From: Sandaracinaceae bacterium
GTDB lineage: Bacteria; Myxococcota_A; Polyangia; Polyangiales; Sandaracinaceae
Reading direction: 5' to 3'
Assembly: GCA_050331215.1 (NCBI GenBank)
Contig: JBHJHB010000117.1
Span: 64,001 to 98,989 of the forward strand
DNA length: 34,989 bases
The notes under the pieces were generated by a model. It saw only the letters and a list, made by a program, of their open reading frames with translations. It was not told where the DNA came from and made no database searches. How positions within the stretch are numbered: the stretch's first letter is position 1; each line of letters opens with the position of its first letter. Shown piece after piece: positions 7,933 through 18,310 of the stretch. The position numbers were made by a program, and so were the translations under genes.

Positions 7933-10623
7933 TCAATACTCGACGCGTACGCCGCCCTGGACGAGGAAGGGGCGGTTCGGGCGCGCCCCGAACGGCCGGG
8001 TCGAGACGATCCGCTGCGTGAAGGTCAGGTTCTCGCCCCGGACGTAGACCCGCAGGTTCTCGAAGACCTGCAGGTACACCGTCGCGTCGAGCAGGAAATA
8101 GGGCTGCGTCTTCGTCTCGAGGCCGTCGCCGTCGACGTCGGTCCCATCGCCGATGTCCGACTCCGGGGTGCCCCTCCCCGCCTGCTCCCACATCGACGAC
8201 ACGAAGGACCCGCTGATCGAGGCCCCCGCCCTCTCCCCCTCCACGCCCGCCTGCAGCGTGAGCTGGTGCGGCGGGATGTAGGGGATGCGGTCGCCGACCC
8301 GGAAGTTGCCGAGGAGCGGGTCGCCCGTGTCCTCGGCCGTCCGCAGCTCGGTGAACACGTAGGTGTAGGCGAGGCGGAGGGGAAAGGCGACCGAGCCGAC
8401 CGTCGGCCGGCTGTCCGCGGCCACCTCGGCGCCGAGCACGTTGGCGGCGCCCGCGTTGGTCTGCTGGCCGATCGCATCGTCCGGGCACCCGGTCGCGAAG
8501 CTGCAGATCACGGTCAGGTTGGAGTAGTCGTTGAAGAAGAAGATCGCCGACGCGCGGGTCCGGCTCTCCTCGTGGCGGTAGCGCACGCCCGCCTCGTACA
8601 GCACGGACCGCTCGGGCTCCGCGTCCCCGCCCGTGCTGGGCGCGGCCGGGCTGAAGCCCCGCTGGACCCCGCCCACGAGGGAGAGCCCGTCGATCAGCTC
8701 CCAGGCCGCCGAGATCCCCGGCAGGACGCCGACCTGCTGGTCGTCCCCCTGCGCCCCGGCGAGCCGGTCGAGGAACCGCGTCCAGATCAGCTCGAGGCGG
8801 ATGCCCGGGGTCACGGTCAGGCCTCGCCAGCGGAGCGTCCAGGCGGTGTAGGCGCTCACCGCGAAGGCCTCCGCCGTGTTGTCCGCGGTCTGCCCGAAGG
8901 TGTTGTCCTGCTCCTGGAGCACGCGCTCGTCGTCGAGGAGGAACTCGGCCTGGGTGTGGTCCCGGGTCACCGTGTCCCAGTGGAAGCGCGCCCCGAAGCG
9001 CGCCTGGTGCTCGACCTCCCCCGTGCCGAGGCGGAGCGTGGCGTCGCTCTGGATCCCCTGCGACGCATACCGCCGGCCGTTGTTGCCGATCAGGAGAGGC
9101 CGGGTCGGGTCGGACGAGGTCCCCTCCACGACCCGAAAGAAGGGCTCGTTGGTCGCCGTGTCGGGCCGAAGGAGCACGTCCCGCAGGTCCGCCCCGGCCA
9201 CCCCGTTCACCTTGAACCAGTCCCGGTCGAAGTCGTGGCGATAGGCGGTGGTTCGCAGCTGGAAGCCCTCGCCGACCTCGAGGGTCCAGCGAAGCTGGGC
9301 CTGGGTCCGCCACCAGCGCATGCGGTCGAGGCCGCTCGTCCCGTACCGCCGGTAGGGGCCGTCCCGGAAGTCGCCTTCGGTGAGCCCGAGGTACGTCTCG
9401 TGCGAGCTCTCCAGGGTGAGCCCGAGCCGCGCCTCCAGGGTCTGGTAGACGTTGTCCCCGGTCGCGCCGCGCACGTCCCCGCGCAAGATGATCTCGCCTC
9501 GGTCGAAGCCCGTGCTGCCGTTGCCGCCCGCGGGGAAGTCGAGGTTCTTGAAGCCGTCGCTGTGGAGGTAGAGGCCCTCGACCAGGAAGCCGCCCCACTC
9601 GTTCGAGGTGCCGCCGTAGGCGTGCGCGCGGCCGGTCAGGTAGCTGCCGAGGGAGAGGTCCACGCCCGCGTGCGGCTCCCGCGGGATCGGGCGGCTCCGC
9701 CAGTCGATCGCCCCCGCCACCAGGTACGGCCCGTAGGGCAGCGCGGCCGGGCCCAGGTAGACGTCCATGCCGACCATGCGGCCCAGGAGCGGAAAGAAGT
9801 AGGCGCTCGGGGCGCTGTAGGGGGCAGGGCCGAAGAGCACCCCGTCCTCCATCAAGGTGATCTTGCGGCTCCGCTGCGGGCTCACCCCGCGCATGCCGAT
9901 GTTCGGGCGAAGCCCGAAGCCGTCCTCCATCTGGACGTAGACGCCCGGAACCTGGAGCACCTGGGCGTGGGGGTCGTCGTAGCGGAAGCGCGCCAGCGCC
10001 TCCTCGTCCAGGCGGTAGACGCTCGGACCGAGGGGGTCCGGCTCCTCCGTATCGAGGGCGGCGGCCGCTACGGTGACCGCGACCTCCATGTCCTCGTCCT
10101 CGTCGTCGAGGATCTCGGCGAGCTCCGCGTCCTCGCCGACGCCCTCGGCGTCGCGCGCGGCGCCCTCCGCGTCGCGGTCGGTGCCGTCGTCGGACGGGAG
10201 GTCGCCCAGCACGTCGTCGTCGGAGAGCTCCCCCAGCGCATCGTCACCCGGGCCCGCGGCCTCCCCCGGCGCGTCGTCGCCCGGCGCGTCGCCGTGGGGG
10301 GGCGCGCCCGCCACGTCGCTACCGGGCGCGTCGCCGGGGGGAGGCGCGCCCGGCGCGTCGTCGCCCGGCGCGTCATCGCCCGGGGGCTCGCCCGCCACGT
10401 CGTCGTTCGGGGGCTCGCCCGGCACGTCGTCCGGGCGGTCGGTCTCGGCGCCGCCCCTCGAGCCATCCTCCTCGGCGGGGCCGTCGGGACGGTCGCCCCC
10501 GGCGCGCTCGACGCCCGCGTCAGCGTCGGGCTGACCCAGCGCCCGGGGGGCGGGGAAGCACAGCGCCGGGACGCACAGCGCCGAGACGCACAGCGCCACG
10601 GCCACCGCCCAGCCCCGCAGCAC
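7933..10623 (-). CDS. TonB-dependent outer-membrane receptor with an unusual acidic low-complexity N-terminal extension
   Basis: The plug domain is recognisable (PGVYVQMEDGFGLRPNIGMRGVSPQRSRKITLMEDGVLFGPAPY) and is followed by a long beta-barrel ending ...GGVRVEY. I chose the GTG at 10623 as the start. It gives the signal peptide VLRGWAVAVALCVSALCVPALCFPAPRALG and avoids a 79-bp same-strand overlap with the upstream HTTM gene. The ORF track's ATG at 10725 is the alternative. About 150 aa of D/E/G/P-rich repeats (GDDAPG-like) lie between the signal peptide and the plug. Confidence 0.85.
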   Translation of the reverse strand: MLRGWAVAVALCVSALCVPALCFPAPRALGQPDADAGVERAGGDRPDGPAEEDGSRGGAETDRPDDVPGEPPNDDVAGEPPGDDAPGDDAPGAPPPGDAPGSDVAGAPPHGDAPGDDAPGEAAGPGDDALGELSDDDVLGDLPSDDGTDRDAEGAARDAEGVGEDAELAEILDDEDEDMEVAVTVAAAALDTEEPDPLGPSVYRLDEEALARFRYDDPHAQVLQVPGVYVQMEDGFGLRPNIGMRGVSPQRSRKITLMEDGVLFGPAPYSAPSAYFFPLLGRMVGMDVYLGPAALPYGPYLVAGAIDWRSRPIPREPHAGVDLSLGSYLTGRAHAYGGTSNEWGGFLVEGLYLHSDGFKNLDFPAGGNGSTGFDRGEIILRGDVRGATGDNVYQTLEARLGLTLESSHETYLGLTEGDFRDGPYRRYGTSGLDRMRWWRTQAQLRWTLEVGEGFQLRTTAYRHDFDRDWFKVNGVAGADLRDVLLRPDTATNEPFFRVVEGTSSDPTRPLLIGNNGRRYASQGIQSDATLRLGTGEVEHQARFGARFHWDTVTRDHTQAEFLLDDERVLQEQDNTFGQTADNTAEAFAVSAYTAWTLRWRGLTVTPGIRLELIWTRFLDRLAGAQGDDQQVGVLPGISAAWELIDGLSLVGGVQRGFSPAAPSTGGDAEPERSVLYEAGVRYRHEESRTRASAIFFFNDYSNLTVICSFATGCPDDAIGQQTNAGAANVLGAEVAADSRPTVGSVAFPLRLAYTYVFTELRTAEDTGDPLLGNFRVGDRIPYIPPHQLTLQAGVEGERAGASISGSFVSSMWEQAGRGTPESDIGDGTDVDGDGLETKTQPYFLLDATVYLQVFENLRVYVRGENLTFTQRIVSTRPFGARPNRPFLVQGGVRVEY
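10070..10460. repeat. In-frame imperfect tandem DNA repeats inside the TonB-receptor gene, encoding the acidic DDxPG(E/A)PP low-complexity linker
   Basis: Variants of ggcgcgtcgtcgcccggcgcgtc recur many times on the plus strand. On the minus strand the translation is ...PGDDAPGDDAPGAPPPGDAPGSDVAGAPPHGDAPGDDAPGEAAGPGDD.... A separate 15-bp x3 repeat (gcacagcgccgNgac, about 10557-10605) encodes part of the signal peptide. Confidence 0.7.
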
Positions 10624-10646
10624 CCGCGCCCCGATGCACCTCCGGC

Positions 10647-12050
10647 TCACCGTCGCCCGGTCCTCGCGTAGGCAGGGCGGCCCCCCGCGGGGAGCGGCGG
10701 CCCCTCCGGGGCGGCCGCGATCCACGTGGCCGGCAGCACGGATGGGTGCACCTCGGTCAGGTCCACGTCGGGGTCGATCAGCCGCGCCCGCGGGCGCCCG
10801 TTCAGCGATGCCCAGGCATCCACCCGCACCTCCACGCCCCGCTCGCCCCGGGCCTCGAGGTCCCCCGCGATCCGGTGGGCGAGCTGAACGATCAGGTCCG
10901 GCTGACCGCTCATCTCACGCTCCTGGTGGAGGGTGAGGTACTGGTCGGGGCGCAGGTAGCGCTCCGCCGGGTGGTCGGCGGTCCGCACCCGATAGACCAC
11001 GCTCCCGCTCTTCTGACGCACCATCACGCGCCAGCTGAAGCGCATCCCCTGCTCGTGCCAGAGGACGTCGCCGCCGTAGGCATGAGCGCGGAGCGGGATC
11101 GCGACTTGGAGGCCGGCCCAGAGAGCCAGCGCGAGCACCGCGGGCCGGCGCAGGCGGACGGCCTCGGCGGGCGCGCCGAGGCTCTTGTCCCGTGCCTGCC
11201 GCCAGCCGAAGCGCCGCGCGAGGCTCCGGGGCCAGGAGGGGTCGAAGAACACCAGCGCGAAGCCGCTCATCAACCACGGGAACATGCCGATGTTGAACAG
11301 CACGCCGGTCGCCGCGTGGAAGGCGAGCACGACGGCGAGGGCGAAGGGTCGGGACCTGCGCCAGAGGAGCCAGAGCGGGATGGTCAGGTCGTAGAGGAAG
11401 CCGGCCCAGCTCATCGTCAGGGCGAGCCACGCGTCGTCCATCCACGGGCCGACGACGGCCAGGTCCGACCGGGAGGCGAGCCAGATCCCGAGCGGCTGCC
11501 CGTGGAGCAGCCAGTCCGGCTGCAGCTTGGCCAGCGCGGCGAACACGTACACCACGCCGACCTGGAAGCGCAGCGCCCAGGTCATCCAGGCGGGCAGGGT
11601 CCGCACCCGGATCGACGGCCGGAGCCAGGCGTCCACGGAGCCCGCCCGGTGGAGCGGGAGGACCGCCAGCAGCGCCGCCAGCAGGCTCACCAGCACGTAG
11701 TGGTTGAGGTAGAAGGTGACGTCGAGCAGCTCGACGTACGCGAACACCGCGAGGAACACGACCGTCGCCACCCGGTACAGCGCGCCGACGGCGATGGCGA
11801 GGGCGCTCACCGCGAGCACGGCGAACAGCGCGTAGAGCACGGGCCCGGGCGGGGTGGCGACCCAGTCGAACCCGGGGTAGTGGAAGGCGAAGGTCGGCTC
11901 GAGGTAGAAGGTCTCGACCCAGCCCGACAGCACCGTCCGGGCCACCGCCGCGAGCAGCAGCAGCCCGAAGATCACGCGGAACGCCACGAGGCCCGCGACG
12001 TCCCACGGCTCCTCGAGGCGCCGCCGGATGGCGGCGATGGCGCGAGGCAC
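10647..12050 (-). CDS. HTTM-domain (vitamin K-dependent gamma-carboxylase-like) integral membrane protein
   Basis: The N-terminal half is polytopic and hydrophobic, with the HTTM-type pattern (FRVIFGLLLL..., the W-rich helices WLLHGQPLGIW and MFPWLMSGFALVFFDPSW). A soluble C-terminal domain follows. The start is GTG at 12050, 8 nt after the imelysin stop. Confidence 0.7.
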   Translation of the reverse strand: MPRAIAAIRRRLEEPWDVAGLVAFRVIFGLLLLAAVARTVLSGWVETFYLEPTFAFHYPGFDWVATPPGPVLYALFAVLAVSALAIAVGALYRVATVVFLAVFAYVELLDVTFYLNHYVLVSLLAALLAVLPLHRAGSVDAWLRPSIRVRTLPAWMTWALRFQVGVVYVFAALAKLQPDWLLHGQPLGIWLASRSDLAVVGPWMDDAWLALTMSWAGFLYDLTIPLWLLWRRSRPFALAVVLAFHAATGVLFNIGMFPWLMSGFALVFFDPSWPRSLARRFGWRQARDKSLGAPAEAVRLRRPAVLALALWAGLQVAIPLRAHAYGGDVLWHEQGMRFSWRVMVRQKSGSVVYRVRTADHPAERYLRPDQYLTLHQEREMSGQPDLIVQLAHRIAGDLEARGERGVEVRVDAWASLNGRPRARLIDPDVDLTEVHPSVLPATWIAAAPEGPPLPAGGRPAYARTGRR

Positions 12051-12058
12051 GGCTACGC

Positions 12059-13228
12059 TCAGTCGTTGTCGCCGACCGGCGGCGCCGGCGGTGAGAAGTC
12101 GAGAGCCGCCGCGAAGTCGGTCTCGAGGATCACGACCACGGCCTGGAGCGCCGCGAAGGCAGCCTCCACGGTCTCCGGGTCGTCCGTGAGGGCCGCCTCC
12201 AGGCTCGGCTCCACCGCCTCGACGGCAGCGGCCGCGTCGTCGAGGGCGCTCGTCAGGTCCGCCGCGGTCGAGCCGGCTCCGAGGTCGTCGAGCAGGTCAT
12301 CCAGCCCGACCGGCGCGCCGACGACCACCGCCCTCGCGCCGGCGAGGTTCGCCGCGACGTTGTCCCGGGAGTGCGCCGCGATCGACGACTCCAGGTCGTC
12401 CGGGCACGGCGGCGCCTCGCACCGCGGGCGGCTGGCCATCCGGAGCCCCGAGGGGTCCCCGATCTTCATGTCGAGCACCTCGGACTCGAGGTAGAAGAGC
12501 GACCCCGCGAGGTTGCTGACGGCGAGCTGGGCGGTCGGAAAGAGCAGGGAGCCCAGGCCGGCCTCCGCGAGCTCGGCGCGGAAGCCGTCCGCACCGGCCC
12601 AGCCGGCGAGGATCGCCTCCGCCCGCTCCCGGACAAGCACCGCCAGGGTGGCGGCGTAGGCCGCCCGCCGGGCGCGGACACCCTCCGGGCCGATGGCGTC
12701 CCAGGTACCCTCCGCGTTGATCGGGTCCTGGGGCGGACAAGCGTTCGCGGTGTCCTCGACGAACAGGAGCACCTCGAGGGCATCCAGCCCGCGCACGTTC
12801 ATGTCCTCGGAGCGGAGCTGCTCGACGCTCCGGAAGCTCTCGGCGACCGTCTCCTGGTCCATCCGGCAGCGGTTCGTCTCGGGCCAGCTGTGGATCTCCA
12901 GGCCCAGGTCCTCCCCGCCGGGGCCGCTCCCCGCCGCTGCGCCGGGCCCGATCAGCGCCGCTTCGACGCTCTGCCAGGCGACCATCGTCGCCCGCCAGGC
13001 CGACCGGGCCGCGGACCGGTTCGGCTCGGTCACCTCCCCGGCGTAGGCCGCGGTCGCGGTCTCGAGCTCGACGGCCCGGTCCCGAACGTCCTGCAGCTGC
13101 GGCAGAAGCACGGCATCGGTGAGGGCCAGGAGCACCTCGCGCTTGCGGGGGGCCAGGGCATCCTCGGGCTCGCTCGCGGTGCAGCCGACGGTGGCGGCGA
13201 GCGCGAGCACGGTCAGGGTTCGAAGCAC
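12059..13228 (-). CDS. Imelysin-like (peptidase M75 / IrpA-EfeM family) lipoprotein
   Basis: The start is GTG at 13228, preceded by GGAG at a 10-nt spacing. The lipobox signal is LTVLALAATVG|C. The N-terminal imelysin-like pattern is VLLPQLQDVRDRAVELETA...ARSAWRATMVAWQSVEAALIGPG (helix-pair repeat, W...W...E...GP), and the acidic C-terminal second repeat is also present. I see no canonical HxxE protease motif, so this is more IrpA-like than a peptidase. Confidence 0.7.
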   Translation of the reverse strand: MLRTLTVLALAATVGCTASEPEDALAPRKREVLLALTDAVLLPQLQDVRDRAVELETATAAYAGEVTEPNRSAARSAWRATMVAWQSVEAALIGPGAAAGSGPGGEDLGLEIHSWPETNRCRMDQETVAESFRSVEQLRSEDMNVRGLDALEVLLFVEDTANACPPQDPINAEGTWDAIGPEGVRARRAAYAATLAVLVRERAEAILAGWAGADGFRAELAEAGLGSLLFPTAQLAVSNLAGSLFYLESEVLDMKIGDPSGLRMASRPRCEAPPCPDDLESSIAAHSRDNVAANLAGARAVVVGAPVGLDDLLDDLGAGSTAADLTSALDDAAAAVEAVEPSLEAALTDDPETVEAAFAALQAVVVILETDFAAALDFSPPAPPVGDND

Positions 13229-13244
13229 GGTCGGTCGTCTCCGC

Positions 13245-14675
13245 TCACCAGCCGCCGAGGCCCTGGTCGTCCCCGAGGTTGGCGGCATCGAAGGAAAAGG
13301 CGTCGGCGAGGATGGCACGCGCCTCGAGAAGGTCCAGGCGGTGGGCGTCGACGGCCTCCGCGCCGTCGACCGGCAGCACCGGGGCGTCGCCGAGGAGCGT
13401 GTGGAGGCGGTCGAAGGAACCCGCCGAGACCGGCGAGCGTGGGTTGAACTGGAACCCGAGGGCGAAGCCCTTGGCCTCCGACCAGTGCTTCGCGTGGTCG
13501 AGGAACCCGTAGTCGTCGGTCCCGATGGCCGCCAGGTCCTGAAGCTGCTCGTTGATGTAGTGAACCACGGTGGCCGCGTAGGCGGCCTCCCAGGCGCCGC
13601 GCGCCCGGTCCCGCTGGGCCCGCAGCGCCTCGAGGTCGTCCGGGTCGATCGGCCCGCTGCGGTCCGCGATCAGGTCGCGGCCGCGGCGGAAGGCGTCCCA
13701 GGCGGTCTCCGCGAAGTCGGTCTCGGCCCCCGCCGCGCTGTCGAGGTCGCGCCGGGCTGCGTTGCGGGAGGCGCCGAAGTTGTACTCGCTCTTCAGGTCG
13801 ATGCGGCCGTCCGACGCGATGGAGTCGCGGTACCGGTCGGCGCCCGCGACGTCGGCCAGGTCGTAGTCGCCGTAGTCCCGCGCGGCCCCGAAGTAACCGA
13901 AGGCCTCGTCCCAGGCGTGCTCGAGGGCGGTGTAGCCGCCCGCGTCATCGACGTGGTCCGCGAGCAGCCCCTTGCCCTCGACGTCGTCGTCCAGGTAGTC
14001 GTCCGCGGCCTGGTGGAACGCGAGGGCGACCAGGAAGAACTTCTCCGTGAGCTGGGCCAGGTCGAGGCCGCTCTCCGTGACGGTCACGGGCAGGCTGCTG
14101 CCGTCGGGGCCCGTACGGGGGTCGCCCTGCGCCCGCTTGAGCGCGTTGGCCTCCACCGTCTCGAACATCGCCGTCACGAGCCCCGTGGGCGACGTGATGC
14201 TGCCGCCGTGCTGCGCGAGGGCGGGGTCCGACCAGCCCCGGAAGTCGGTCGACCAGTCGACGTAGTCGGTCGCCGGGTCGTTGCCCGCGAGCTTCTGGTC
14301 GAGGGACGCGCCGGTCGACACCTCGCCGTACGTCTCCTGGAGGAGCGGCGGATCGGTCGCGAGGAGCGGCGCGAGGCCCGCCGCCGCGTCCCCGTCGAAC
14401 CGGAAGTAGAAGTCCAGGCGAGCGACGACGTCCCCCTCCTCCGCGGGCTGGACGTCGCCGCGGTCGATCTGCTCGGTCAACCCGTCGAGGCTCCGCCGCA
14501 GCTCGCCGATCAGGAGATGGCGCATCGTCTGGCCGCTGTAGGCGACGCTGGAGTCGGCGCCGGCGAAGCGGCTGCCGAACGCATAGGTAGCCGGGAGGCT
14601 GCCACCCGCTTCGCCGCCGCAGGCGGACGTCAGGCACAGCGCGGGGCAGAGCAGGAGCAAGGAACGAAGCGACAT
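13245..14675 (-). CDS. Secreted lipoprotein, DUF4856-like (imelysin-associated family); function unknown
   Basis: The start is ATG at 14675, preceded by GGAG at a 7-nt spacing. The lipobox signal is MSLRSLLLLCPALCLTSA|CGG. It is the first gene of the operon and lies 16 nt upstream of the imelysin gene. The family name comes from my memory of recurring imelysin-HTTM-DUF4856 neighbourhoods and is unverified here. Confidence 0.6.
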   Translation of the reverse strand: MSLRSLLLLCPALCLTSACGGEAGGSLPATYAFGSRFAGADSSVAYSGQTMRHLLIGELRRSLDGLTEQIDRGDVQPAEEGDVVARLDFYFRFDGDAAAGLAPLLATDPPLLQETYGEVSTGASLDQKLAGNDPATDYVDWSTDFRGWSDPALAQHGGSITSPTGLVTAMFETVEANALKRAQGDPRTGPDGSSLPVTVTESGLDLAQLTEKFFLVALAFHQAADDYLDDDVEGKGLLADHVDDAGGYTALEHAWDEAFGYFGAARDYGDYDLADVAGADRYRDSIASDGRIDLKSEYNFGASRNAARRDLDSAAGAETDFAETAWDAFRRGRDLIADRSGPIDPDDLEALRAQRDRARGAWEAAYAATVVHYINEQLQDLAAIGTDDYGFLDHAKHWSEAKGFALGFQFNPRSPVSAGSFDRLHTLLGDAPVLPVDGAEAVDAHRLDLLEARAILADAFSFDAANLGDDQGLGGW

Positions 14676-14711
14676 GCGAGGTCTCCGAAGGGTCGAGGTG
14701 TCGTGGAAGAG

Positions 14712-14745
14712 ACGGACGATAATGAGTTTGATTCTCAGTTGCGCC
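14712..14745. promoter_or_regulatory. Candidate Fur box / iron-responsive operator in the divergent promoter region
   Basis: GATAATGAGTTTGATTCTC (14718-14736) matches the 19-bp Fur consensus GATAATGATAATCATTATC at 14 of 19 positions, including the perfect first 8. It sits in a locally AT-rich patch of an otherwise about 70% GC region, 40-60 bp upstream of the first operon gene (start 14675, minus strand). It also contains the inverted repeat TGAG-TTTGATT-CTCA. Confidence 0.45.
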
Positions 14746-14798
14746 CAGGGGTAGCGGGCGGCGGAGACGCCGTCAAGCTCGCACGTTGGCCTCCTCAC

Positions 14799-15692
14799 GT
14801 GGCGCCGGTAGGCTCCAGAGACGTGCAGTCGCTCCTGAAGCTCCTGGACCTGGTGCGCCGCGACCTCGGCGCGCAGGACGTCCGAGCCGAGATCGGCGGC
14901 CGACCGCCGCCCCCCGACGCGCGACGCATCTGGGCGGAGCTGGATCCCGACCTCCGGGTCGTGGTGACCTTCGCGGAGCCCCCTGGCGTACCGGAGGAGC
15001 TCCGAGCCCGCCTCGTGGCTCTGCTCGTCCCGTTCTCCGACCTTCCGCGGCGTGTGGTGTTCCCGGCCCTCGAGGTGCCGGAGAACAAGGAGCGGGAGCT
15101 CGACGAGGAGCTCTCGACCCTCGCCGAGCGGACCGGCGCCCTGGCCGCCGTGGTGATCGACGAGCGCTCACCCGTGCTCTGGGGGACGAGCGTGCCGCGG
15201 GTGGAGGGCTGGGACGTCGCGCGGATGGAGGAGGCCGTGCGGCTCGCCGCGGACGTCGCCTCCTACGGGCTCGATCCCACCGAGGCCCTCCTCGAGGACG
15301 CCCCCGCCCCGGCGGGCATCGACGTCACCCGGCAGCGTCGCTGGGCCCACCGCTTCGCAGGGCTGAGGCCTCTCCTTCCCGAGGGCGGCCGCGACGGATG
15401 GCGTAACGCCCTGACCCTCGCCCGTGCCGTCCATGCCGTGCGCGACCGTTGCCGGGGTGGACGCGCGCCCGAGCGGCTGGCCCTGGCCGAGAGCGACCTC
15501 GGGGTGTTCGCGCGCGGCCTCGCGCATATCTACGCGGCGGTGCTCGTGTTCGAAGGCCCCTACTCCGAGCTCCACGCCGAGGGCCCCCTCGTGCGGGTTC
15601 TGCCGACCCTGGAGAGCCTGGTCCTGGCCCTGCCGCCAGTGGAGCCCCCACCCCGGGGGGCCAAGGTCATCCCGCTGCGGTCCGGCCCGTGA
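14799..15692 (+). CDS. Hypothetical protein (about 298 aa)
   Basis: This is the in-frame tail of the artefactual 857-aa ORF 13119..15692. The first plausible starts are the GTGs at 14799 and 14823, which I cannot distinguish. The stop TGA at 15690-15692 overlaps the next gene's GTG (GTGA). I recognise no domain. The segment AAVVIDERSPVLWG is faintly roadblock-like. Confidence 0.5.
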   Translation: MAPVGSRDVQSLLKLLDLVRRDLGAQDVRAEIGGRPPPPDARRIWAELDPDLRVVVTFAEPPGVPEELRARLVALLVPFSDLPRRVVFPALEVPENKERELDEELSTLAERTGALAAVVIDERSPVLWGTSVPRVEGWDVARMEEAVRLAADVASYGLDPTEALLEDAPAPAGIDVTRQRRWAHRFAGLRPLLPEGGRDGWRNALTLARAVHAVRDRCRGGRAPERLALAESDLGVFARGLAHIYAAVLVFEGPYSELHAEGPLVRVLPTLESLVLALPPVEPPPRGAKVIPLRSGP

Positions 15693-16975: not shown

Positions 16976-18310
16976 GTGCGGCCGCCGACGCCCCCCTCAT
17001 ACTCCGGCCCCGTGACCGCGCCCGCGCTCCCCCGCCGGAACCTCCCGCTCTACCTGGGCGCGCGCGTGGCGGCAGCCACGGGCATCCAGATCCAGAGCGT
17101 CGCGATCGGCCTCCAGGTCTACGAGCGCACGGGGAGCACGCTCGACCTCGGCAACGTCGGCCTCGCCCAGTTCGTGCCCCTCGCCCTCTTGAGCGCCTAC
17201 GCCGGGAGCTTCGCCGACCGCCACGACCGCCGCACGATCCTGACCGCCTGCCGGGTGCTCTACGCCGTCGGCAGCCTCGCCCTCGCGTCGCTCTGCTTCG
17301 CCCCGGGATGGGGGGTGGGCCCCATCTACGTCGTCCTGGTGGTGCTCGGCGCGACGCGGGCCTTCTCGTGGCCGGCGAGCTCGGCGCTCCTTCCCAACGT
17401 GGTCTCTCTGGCCGAGCTCCCGCGAGCGATCGCCCTCAGCTCGATCGCGTTCCAGGTCGCCACGGTGAGCGGCCCGGCCCTGAGCGGCATCCTCTACGCG
17501 GCCGCCGGGCCCGAGGGCGCGTACCTCGCGTCGGCGGTCCTCGAGGGGACGAGCGCGGTGCTCGTGTTCCTCCTGCGACCCGCCCCCCGGCGTGGCCCCG
17601 TCCGGCCCACCGAGCCCTGGCCTCGGCAGTTCCTCTCCGGGCTGCGCTACGTGTTCCGGGAGAAGATCGTCCTCGGCGCGCTCAGCCTCGACCTGTTCGC
17701 GGTGCTCCTGGGCGGGGCGGTGGCGTTGATGCCCGTCTACGCCACGGACATCCTGGGCGTCGGGGCGACCGGGTTCGGCTGGCTCCGGGCCGCGCCAGCC
17801 GTCGGCGCCGTGGTCGTCGCGATCTTCCTGGCGTCGCGGCCGATCCGACGCCGCGCGGGGCTCTACCTGTTCCTCGGGGTCGGGCTGTTCGGCCTCGCCA
17901 CGATCGTGTTCGGGCTCTCCCGGAGCTTCGGCCTGTCGCTGATCGCCCTCGTGATCCTGGGCGGCGCGGACATGGTCAGCGTGGTGATCCGCCGCAGCCT
18001 GATCCAGCTCTGGACGCCCGACGCGATGAGGGGTCGGGTGAGCGCCGTCGACATGGTCTTCGTCGGGGCGAGCAACGAGCTCGGCGAGATGGAGTCGGGC
18101 TACAGCGCGCGGCTCCTGGAGGTAGGCGTCGGCCTCGAGAAGGAGAAGGCGGTCGTCGCCGCCGTGGTCCTCGGCGGGGTCGGCACCCTGATGGTGACGG
18201 GGCTGTGGGCCTGGGCATTCCCGAGCCTCCGGCGCACCGACCGCCTCCAGGGGCGCGACGGGGCGCGCCCGACGCCGGTGCCGCCCGACGGCGCGCCAGG
18301 CGGCCGCTAG
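16976..18310 (+). CDS. MFS transporter (EntS/ENTS-like 12-TM efflux family)
   Basis: The protein has 12 hydrophobic segments and a conserved MFS loop motif (GSFADRHDRR; also LASRPIRRR). The exact start is uncertain; it is either the ATG at 16976 or an internal GTG. Confidence 0.75.
   Translation: MRPPTPPSYSGPVTAPALPRRNLPLYLGARVAAATGIQIQSVAIGLQVYERTGSTLDLGNVGLAQFVPLALLSAYAGSFADRHDRRTILTACRVLYAVGSLALASLCFAPGWGVGPIYVVLVVLGATRAFSWPASSALLPNVVSLAELPRAIALSSIAFQVATVSGPALSGILYAAAGPEGAYLASAVLEGTSAVLVFLLRPAPRRGPVRPTEPWPRQFLSGLRYVFREKIVLGALSLDLFAVLLGGAVALMPVYATDILGVGATGFGWLRAAPAVGAVVVAIFLASRPIRRRAGLYLFLGVGLFGLATIVFGLSRSFGLSLIALVILGGADMVSVVIRRSLIQLWTPDAMRGRVSAVDMVFVGASNELGEMESGYSARLLEVGVGLEKEKAVVAAVVLGGVGTLMVTGLWAWAFPSLRRTDRLQGRDGARPTPVPPDGAPGGR

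Follow-up and report, generated by a model that had tools for sequence, protein, structure and literature searches.

A putatively Fur-controlled four-gene operon of a Sandaracinaceae bacterium links an imelysin-like lipoprotein to a GGCX-fold membrane protein

We analyzed a stretch of 34,989 nucleotides from a Sandaracinaceae bacterium (contig JBHJHB010000117.1, positions 64,001 to 98,989), hereafter referred to as the window, which has a GC content of 73%; all coordinates given below are positions in this window unless another locus is named. The listing of its open reading frames (ORFs) contains four consecutive ORFs on the minus strand with a high third-position GC content. They encode a lipoprotein of the DUF4856 family, an imelysin-like lipoprotein, a polytopic membrane protein with an HTTM domain, and a TonB-dependent receptor, and they had been described before, from the sequence alone, as a putatively iron-regulated operon. 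The HTTM protein is 100% identical to one annotated from a Sandaracinaceae (Myxococcota) metagenome-assembled genome. The operon and its upstream region contain the following features:

14718-14736, minus strand: Fur box, GAGAATCAAACTCATTATC, located in a divergent intergenic region of about 125 nt, 43 nt 5' of the ATG of the DUF4856 gene
13245-14675, minus strand: DUF4856 lipoprotein of 476 aa, first gene of the operon (PF16148), with signal sequence MSLRSLLLLCPALCLTSAC
12059-13228, minus strand: imelysin-like lipoprotein of 389 aa, of the IPPA type (His-less) (PF09375), with lipobox ATVGC
10647-12050, minus strand: polytopic inner-membrane protein of 467 aa with an HTTM and a VKGC lumenal domain (PF05090, PF22777)
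7933-10623 (or 10650), minus strand: TonB-dependent outer-membrane receptor (PF00593), starting at GTG 10623 or GTG 10650

The assignments of the four proteins to the imelysin, HTTM, DUF4856 and TonB-dependent receptor families were all recovered above the Pfam gathering scores. The four genes described are real, but the range originally given for the cluster, 10623-14798, leaves out the body of the receptor gene (7933-10622), position 10623 being the receptor start codon. At the other end, position 14798 is the first in-frame GTG and probably not the start codon; the likelier start of the DUF4856 gene is ATG 14675, which is preceded by GGAG at -11 and opens a lipoprotein signal peptide that terminates in a Cys. 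The gaps of 16, 8 and 23 nt reported between the genes are exact when GTG 13228, GTG 12050 and GTG 10623 are taken as the start codons, although the third gap becomes a 4-nt overlap if the receptor starts at GTG 10650. With the latter codon, which overlaps the stop codon of the HTTM gene (GTGA), the n-region of the signal peptide (MSRRCIGAR...) is more typical. Since this overlap matches the 1- to 4-nt overlaps between the HTTM and receptor genes of homologous clusters, the receptor may be translationally coupled to the HTTM gene. With either receptor start, the short gaps or overlap favor co-transcription of the four genes, as had been proposed. A scan detected neither a sigma-70 consensus promoter nor an intrinsic terminator, which is unsurprising given the high GC content.

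The HTTM subfamily comprises 1575 clusters at 50% identity (E<=1e-30). A genome scan with an alignment of 12 sequences, covering one genome per species, yielded more than 583 relatives, and the neighborhood results presented here are those of the best 80 of them (37-58% identity). The 80 loci represent at least six phyla: Myxococcota, Bacteroidota (including Balneolales), Chloroflexota (mostly labelled Dehalococcoidia), Verrucomicrobiota, Gemmatimonadota and Bdellovibrio (Bdellovibrionota). Neighbors were searched among six-frame ORFs with iterated hidden Markov models, and pairing was scored in the 73 loci that have at least 1.3 kb of sequence upstream of the HTTM gene. An imelysin gene was found within 2.5 kb of the HTTM gene in all 73, and the two genes are strictly adjacent in 66; the remaining seven are explained by artefacts of stop-to-stop ORFs, by a gap of 700 nt, or by the insertion of a receptor gene between imelysin and HTTM. 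The prediction that the quartet would be co-conserved also held, the same order being present in 27 loci of two phyla, with the receptor gene directly 3' of HTTM in each of them. Nevertheless, the conserved unit is the pair formed by a His-less imelysin and the HTTM protein, not the quartet.

Around this pair, the neighborhoods take three forms. Type A has the order of the window, DUF4856-imelysin-HTTM-receptor, and is found in 16 loci of Bacteroidota and in 11 that are from Myxococcota or unclassified. Type B consists of an imelysin, a di-haem oxidoreductase (DHOR; PF06537, E about 1e-100), a second imelysin and HTTM, and occurs in Chloroflexota, Nannocystis, Polyangium and an Akkermansia-like metagenome-assembled genome (MAG). 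In type C, which is present in Myxococcaceae and Sandaracinus, a receptor and a DUF5122 beta-propeller accompany the imelysin-HTTM pair. All-vs-all clustering of the neighbors in the 80 loci showed that only imelysin, receptor, DUF4856, DHOR and beta-propeller genes are recurrent; none of VKOR, Ftr1/EfeU, FeoB, TonB-ExbBD or PepSY was.

Some individual loci show additional features. In a Weeksellaceae MAG (L070), which carries the DUF4856-imelysin-HTTM-receptor set, the DUF4856 gene is inverted with respect to the other Bacteroidota, and an extra canonical (GxHxxE) imelysin gene lies directly 3' of the receptor gene (L070 11815-13032). Five Chloroflexota loci, in which no TonB-dependent receptor is present, share a recurrent gene of about 245 aa beside the cluster, with a weak, sub-cut-off match to DUF998; it directly follows HTTM in L026 (9314-10045) and L028 (9414-10154), and lies beyond the distal imelysin in L016 (13027-13782). 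In Sandaracinus amylolyticus (CP011125.1; L001, 1-13734), the genes form a one-strand array of receptor, HmuY, two propellers, imelysin, HTTM and receptor. Its sole Fur-like site (1006-1024) is located ahead of the first receptor gene, and such an array with a single site at its head suggests a larger composite iron/haem locus.

The original prediction had pointed out that HTTM domains are homologous to GGCX, the gamma-glutamyl carboxylase that depends on vitamin K, and both sequence and fold bear this out. The HTTM protein of the window matches PF05090 (1.5e-79, 267.7 bits; cut-off 27.7) as well as PF22777, the VKGC lumenal domain (9e-41, 139.7 bits; cut-off 27.7), and aligns to residues 55-495 of human GGCX with an E-value of 6e-34. 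Its AlphaFold 2 (AF2) model (pLDDT 83.3) matches GGCX cryo-EM structures only (E=4e-20, TMq 0.75-0.79, with 0.78 as the value for the fold, over about 480 aligned columns). The protein goes beyond a generic HTTM domain: it is a nearly complete homologue of GGCX in which the quinone site is intact. The roles of individual residues were taken from the GGCX cryo-EM structure paper, their equivalents were obtained from a HMMER alignment with an offset of +31 (checked at K217/K218, W157, H160, L394, S398 and others), and their conservation was scored over 81 HTTM homologues. The catalytic base K218 corresponds to K175 of the window protein and is invariant. The residues forming the pocket for the naphthoquinone head (H160, V210, W223, F286, F294 and F299, corresponding to H117, V167, W180, F244, F252 and F257) are invariant or conserved in 80 of the 81 homologues, with H160, W223, F286, F294 and F299 among the invariant ones, and the tail-tunnel residues A214 and G259 are largely kept (A in 74/81, G in 79/81). 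Invariant, too, are N116 and H117, the counterparts of N159 and H160, which in GGCX hold the substrate carboxylate and stabilize the carbanion, according to the structure paper. The lumenal (PBD-1-like) domain is topologically periplasmic, that is, on the same side as the lipoproteins. Menaquinone is known as the respiratory quinone of the phyla that carry the imelysin-HTTM pair, which agrees with the mechanism considered below. Based on the conservation of these residues, we think that the HTTM protein is probably an active quinone-dependent enzyme.

Two other aspects of this protein deserve mention. The least confident stretches of its AF2 model, residues 180-186 (WLLHGQP, after the catalytic Lys) and 334-347 (QGMRFSWRVMVRQK), count among its best-conserved parts at the sequence level; they are the equivalents of the human Cap loop and of the TMD-PBD (Glu-binding) linker, and in the modelled structure they may represent mobile gating elements. 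Fusions of HTTM to partner domains were also considered, and rejected: ten longer homologues carry the HTTM and lumenal domains only.

The second half of the conserved pair, the imelysin-like lipoprotein, matches PF09375 (2.6e-27, 96.6 bits) and the structures 3n8u and 4ecg of the Protein Data Bank (PDB). It had been noted that an obvious HxxE motif is missing, and this is the case: the GxHxxE motif of Site III is replaced by GLDALE, which has no His, and the ExxE motif of Site IV by WQSVE, i.e. QxxE. HTTM-proximal imelysins of other loci are His-less as well (RGLDALEYLLF in Myxococcota and KGFPALDYLLF in Bacteroidota, with G-x-[D/G/P]-x-x-[E/D] as the general form); the HTTM-distal imelysins of type B loci are canonical (TGWHAIEFLLW, which contains GxHxxE, INAWPLDE and EDEHSCFSDNT). 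IPPA carries a Pro at the position of the GxHxxE His, as reported in the EfeM paper, and so do the HTTM-proximal copies of Bacteroidota. According to Xu et al. 2011 (PMC3143127), Fur-regulated clusters, for example PA4370-PA4372, contain the GxxxxE class as their second imelysin-like gene; it is to this IPPA-type class that the window imelysin, by its motifs, belongs. The earlier suggestion that this protein has a binding role rather than a peptidase role is reasonable, and fits its membership of the His-less IPPA-type class.

The DUF4856 protein matches PF16148 (1.4e-11, 44.4 bits; cut-off 22.3) over profile positions 129-284 of 358, and the lipoprotein Cys of DUF4856 proteins is at least 90% conserved. 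In its confident AF2 model (pLDDT 92.5), a conserved N-terminal segment is non-helical and everything after it is helical, and a Foldseek comparison of the model with the PDB revealed no specific relative. Homology of DUF4856 to imelysin was tried and rejected, as hhalign against the imelysin profile gave no significant result. Members from Myxococcota and Bacteroidota share the motif EHxWDEafGYxG, with GRAxI, hYxN and SE as further cross-phylum invariants, and this pattern suggests a polar ligand site. The non-helical segment (residues ~26-52, window ~14520-14600), with the pattern PxtYxF...V...GQxxR, is likewise conserved in Myxococcota and Bacteroidota and may serve as a docking peptide. 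No mention of DUF4856 was found in the literature searched, which excluded paywalled articles.

In the case of the receptor, the barrel is recognized by PF00593 (8e-32, 112 bits). FecA is its best solved relative and matches the plug region with an E-value of 7.8e-16; the Pfam Plug model is absent from the matches with E<=0.01. A sequence resembling a TonB box, EVAVTVAA, was recognized by eye only. All NCBIfam models of siderophore or FecA-type receptors (including TIGR01783) score below cut-off, and no NCBIfam model was obtained for the other three proteins. Between its signal peptide and plug, the receptor has an unusual N-terminal extension of about 130 aa; homologous receptors, at 757-777 aa, fall short of its length by about as much. 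Residues ~65-170 (window 10116-10431, minus strand) consist of acidic, Pro/Asp/Gly-rich imperfect tandem repeats with periods of 21, 27 and 42 nt.

Several lines of evidence bear on the control of the operon by iron. The Fur-like box that had been noticed upstream (14736-14718) matches the 19-mer consensus GATAATGATAATCATTATC at 15 of 19 positions and is the sole site with at most six mismatches in the 35-kb window; in dinucleotide shuffles (n=100), 0.00 sites are expected at up to four mismatches and 0.03 at up to six. We extended this analysis to 46 high-GC related loci, taking as a site any sequence with at most five mismatches to the consensus. In 24 of these loci a Fur-like site is located no more than 300 nt away from the 5' end of whichever imelysin or DUF4856 ORF comes first, and 27 of the 36 sites fall within the 3.9% of the sequence around that gene (binomial P=6e-31). 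Of the other sites, several sit 5' of extended arrays. On one related metagenomic contig, FUR and TonB genes are located directly beside the DUF4856-imelysin-HTTM-receptor set. The classical 19-mer was uninformative in the AT-rich Bacteroidota loci and in those of Chloroflexota, and the Fur-box consensus of Riemerella is reported to differ from it (PMC5609570). For Riemerella anatipestifer, published RNA-seq data are available (PMC5609570) on the gene run RAYM_09779-RAYM_09794, which resembles our operon by annotation: a TonB-dependent receptor, a 'vitamin K-dependent gamma-carboxylase', an imelysin lipoprotein and a hypothetical protein. The values for these genes are 2.1-3.1 in the WT-Fe/WT+Fe comparison and 1.4-1.9 in the delta-fur+Fe/WT+Fe comparison (WT, wild type), the latter effect being weaker than that of iron restriction. 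The run appears only as rows of an RNA-seq table and is not discussed by the authors; this table is the only text we found that contains both 'gamma-carboxylase' and 'imelysin'. Thus, iron, which had been put forward as a guess, is supported by the position-conserved Fur boxes and by the RNA-seq data of the run likened to the operon by annotation, and we consider it likely that the operon is a Fur-controlled iron-acquisition module.

How the GGCX-fold protein might act in such a module is a more speculative matter. With somewhat less than even confidence, we read the locus as a Fur-repressed, TonB-dependent iron operon whose core is an IPPA-type imelysin lipoprotein together with a GGCX-fold membrane enzyme. 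Iron limitation would release Fur from its box (14718-14736), co-transcription of the four genes would follow, and the two lipoproteins would be exported by Sec. At the periplasmic face, the HTTM enzyme would bind menaquinol in its conserved naphthoquinone pocket, Lys175 (human K218) would deprotonate the quinol, and reaction with O2 would generate a strong base, to be used on a substrate that bears a carboxylate and would be held by Asn116 and His117 (human N159 and H160). The likeliest reaction would be a GGCX-like carboxylation of Glu or Asp residues in one or both of the co-encoded lipoproteins (imelysin-like, DUF4856) during export, by which a metal-chelating site would be created or activated. 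The lipoproteins matured in this way would capture Fe(III), which we infer to be the cargo, and cooperate with the receptor in its import. We regard it as possible, though doubtful, that the reaction is the carboxylation of a partner lipoprotein, and the complete chain, in which a menaquinone-dependent GGCX homologue carboxylates lipoprotein Glu or Asp residues and thereby provides gamma-carboxyglutamate (Gla)-type Fe(III) chelation for TonB-dependent uptake, is on present indications unlikely.

A number of observations weigh against this mechanism. On the side of the enzyme, the coupling residue K217 is replaced by Ala in 78 of the 81 homologues, and the GGCX structure paper reports that Leptospira homologues without K217 show no substrate activation. 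The Glu pocket is not kept in full: N158 is replaced by Leu, Y395 by Met in the window (M, Y or F across the homologues), and R436 by Glu (variably E, Q, R or M). The C99-C450 disulfide is absent, as C99 aligns to a Phe. Also absent are the C-terminal region and PBD-2 (human residues 508-604), one half of the propeptide clamp; for PBD-2 this follows from the alignment, which stops at human residue 495. Substrate recognition by the HTTM protein is therefore, on this residue pattern, very probably unlike that of GGCX. On the side of the substrate, only one acidic residue (E281) is at least 90% conserved in the type A imelysins, and since the HTTM-proximal imelysins have essentially one invariant Glu, no Gla-domain-like target is evident. 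Direct metal binding by the window imelysin-like protein is likewise uncertain. At the level of the cluster, the 80 neighborhoods contain no linked VKOR-like enzyme for recycling, and since none of the 13 Chloroflexota type B loci has a receptor, the core does not always come with TonB-dependent import.

It is conceivable that the HTTM protein modifies no protein at all, and instead functions as a menaquinol-driven ferric reductase or electron relay for Fe(III) held by the imelysin; the released iron would then be taken up by an unlinked Fe(II) transporter, and in type B loci the relay would feed the DHOR. The conserved quinone pocket and Lys base speak for this role, imelysin systems are coupled to redox enzymes elsewhere (EfeB in EfeUOB, and the DHOR in PA4370-type clusters and in 22 of our loci), no permease is encoded in the cluster, and the protein lacks PBD-2, K217 and some of the Glu pocket. 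However, the HTTM protein has no haem or metal cofactor motifs and only two invariant His residues, a simple reductase would not need the invariant N159 and H160, and no member of the GGCX family is known as a reductase; hence, we find this explanation rather unlikely. As the HTTM protein is the sole inner-membrane protein recurrently encoded in the clusters, and as the docking of an imelysin protein on a membrane partner has a precedent in EfeO-EfeU, it might alternatively be a non-catalytic acceptor or permease for imelysin-delivered iron, with an EfeU-like role. The absence of transmembrane metal motifs made of acidic residues or His, such as those of the REXXE type, the coincidence of the invariant residues with the quinone and catalytic site of GGCX, and an enzyme fold without known transport activity make this very improbable.

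The cargo itself can also be questioned. The module might handle another ligand, such as haem, another metal or an oxidative-stress product, with Fur acting by cross-regulation. In favor of this, the imelysin-HTTM-receptor genes of S. amylolyticus come after a receptor-HmuY pair, all under a single Fur-like site, the literature reports that Leptospira imelysins are peroxide-induced and that EfeO/EfeM show in vitro binding of Cu, Zn and lanthanides, and the receptor of the window falls below the cut-off of every NCBIfam siderophore-receptor model. Yet the Fur boxes are position-conserved, the Riemerella homologues are induced under iron restriction (PMC5609570), FecA is the best solved relative of the receptor, and all characterized imelysin systems in the literature are tied to iron, which renders the alternative improbable. 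Finally, a chance adjacency of four functionally unlinked genes is effectively refuted by the neighborhood survey, with the same order in 27 loci of two phyla and an imelysin within 2.5 kb of HTTM in 73/73; the gaps of 8-23 nt, or overlap, and the co-regulation of the Riemerella homologues point in the same direction.

Comparison with known systems shows which part of the operon is new. The clusters PA4370-PA4373 of P. aeruginosa and VC1264-1266 of V. cholerae are likewise under Fur control and have an IPPA-type protein as the constant element (Xu et al. 2011, PMC3143127). The PA4370-type order is represented by 22 loci in our set, which have a canonical imelysin (GxHxxE), DHOR, an IPPA-like protein and then HTTM. 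Compared with this type, the operon in the window has DUF4856 in place of the canonical imelysin and DHOR, plus a dedicated TonB-dependent receptor, and the slot after the IPPA-like gene is occupied by the GGCX-fold membrane enzyme. In the proteobacterial clusters, this slot is presumably taken by a DUF1513 propeller. EfeUOB/M also combines an extracytoplasmic imelysin-fold protein with one inner-membrane partner in iron-regulated uptake. However, neither an EfeU/Ftr1 permease nor an EfeB DyP peroxidase is present in the 80 neighborhoods or the window, the ligand motifs HxxE of Site III and ExxE of Site IV are not kept, and the membrane partner has the fold of a quinone enzyme. XusABC of Bacteroides consists of a TonB-dependent receptor, a surface lipoprotein and a PepSY inner-membrane protein, and is thus similar in combining a receptor, an accessory lipoprotein and one inner-membrane redox-type protein; XusB has been linked with TonB-dependent iron receptors. 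All protein families differ between the two systems, though, and no siderophore ligand is indicated in the window.

With respect to the membrane enzyme itself, human GGCX also acts extracytoplasmically on exported proteins, and K218, the quinone pocket and N159/H160 are kept in the window protein, but the latter has 467 aa versus 758 aa and sits in an iron operon. A bacterial HTTM vitamin-K-dependent carboxylase, MloH, is reported to function in the biosynthesis of malonomycin (Law et al. 2018, cited in bioRxiv 10.64898/2026.08.19.745780). By this description, MloH acts on the Asp of a polyketide synthase-nonribosomal peptide synthetase (PKS-NRPS) intermediate and belongs to a natural-product cluster, whereas the window enzyme is linked to lipoproteins and a receptor. 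The earlier statement that the function of bacterial HTTM proteins is essentially unknown was thus slightly overstated, given that MloH has been characterized. Our literature search, which did not cover paywalled articles, found no paper that links HTTM/GGCX homologues to imelysins or iron uptake. The new element is therefore a GGCX-fold component in a known kind of imelysin-based, Fur-regulated iron system, and its role could be categorically new.

Two long-standing unknowns meet at this locus, namely the role of bacterial GGCX/HTTM proteins and that of His-less imelysins in Fur regulons. The survey turns them into a testable hypothesis, as it shows imelysin and HTTM to be obligately paired genes in several phyla and the enzyme to keep the whole vitamin-K site. 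A new step of iron acquisition could be revealed in the environmentally dominant Bacteroidota and Myxococcota and in pathogens of fish and poultry. If the carboxylation mechanism were true, its products would be the first prokaryotic Gla proteins, and metal capture would be indicated as an ancestral role of the vitamin-K carboxylase, before its recruitment to animal blood clotting. The locus may also inform the evolutionary origin of animal gamma-carboxylation.

The remainder of the window provides little additional context. Scans for Rfam families and tRNAs were empty, and the other genes with a Pfam match (EamA, MFS, SDR, 2-oxoglutarate (2OG) oxygenase and M28 peptidase) have no obvious link to iron. 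A divergent ORF of 297 aa (14799-15692, plus strand), which has no Pfam match, shares the intergenic region of about 125 nt that contains the Fur box, and because of this it may also be Fur-controlled. The MFS transporter gene (16976-18310, plus strand), 2 kb from the operon, also matches PF05977 (MFS_3), a family that includes the enterobactin exporter EntS.

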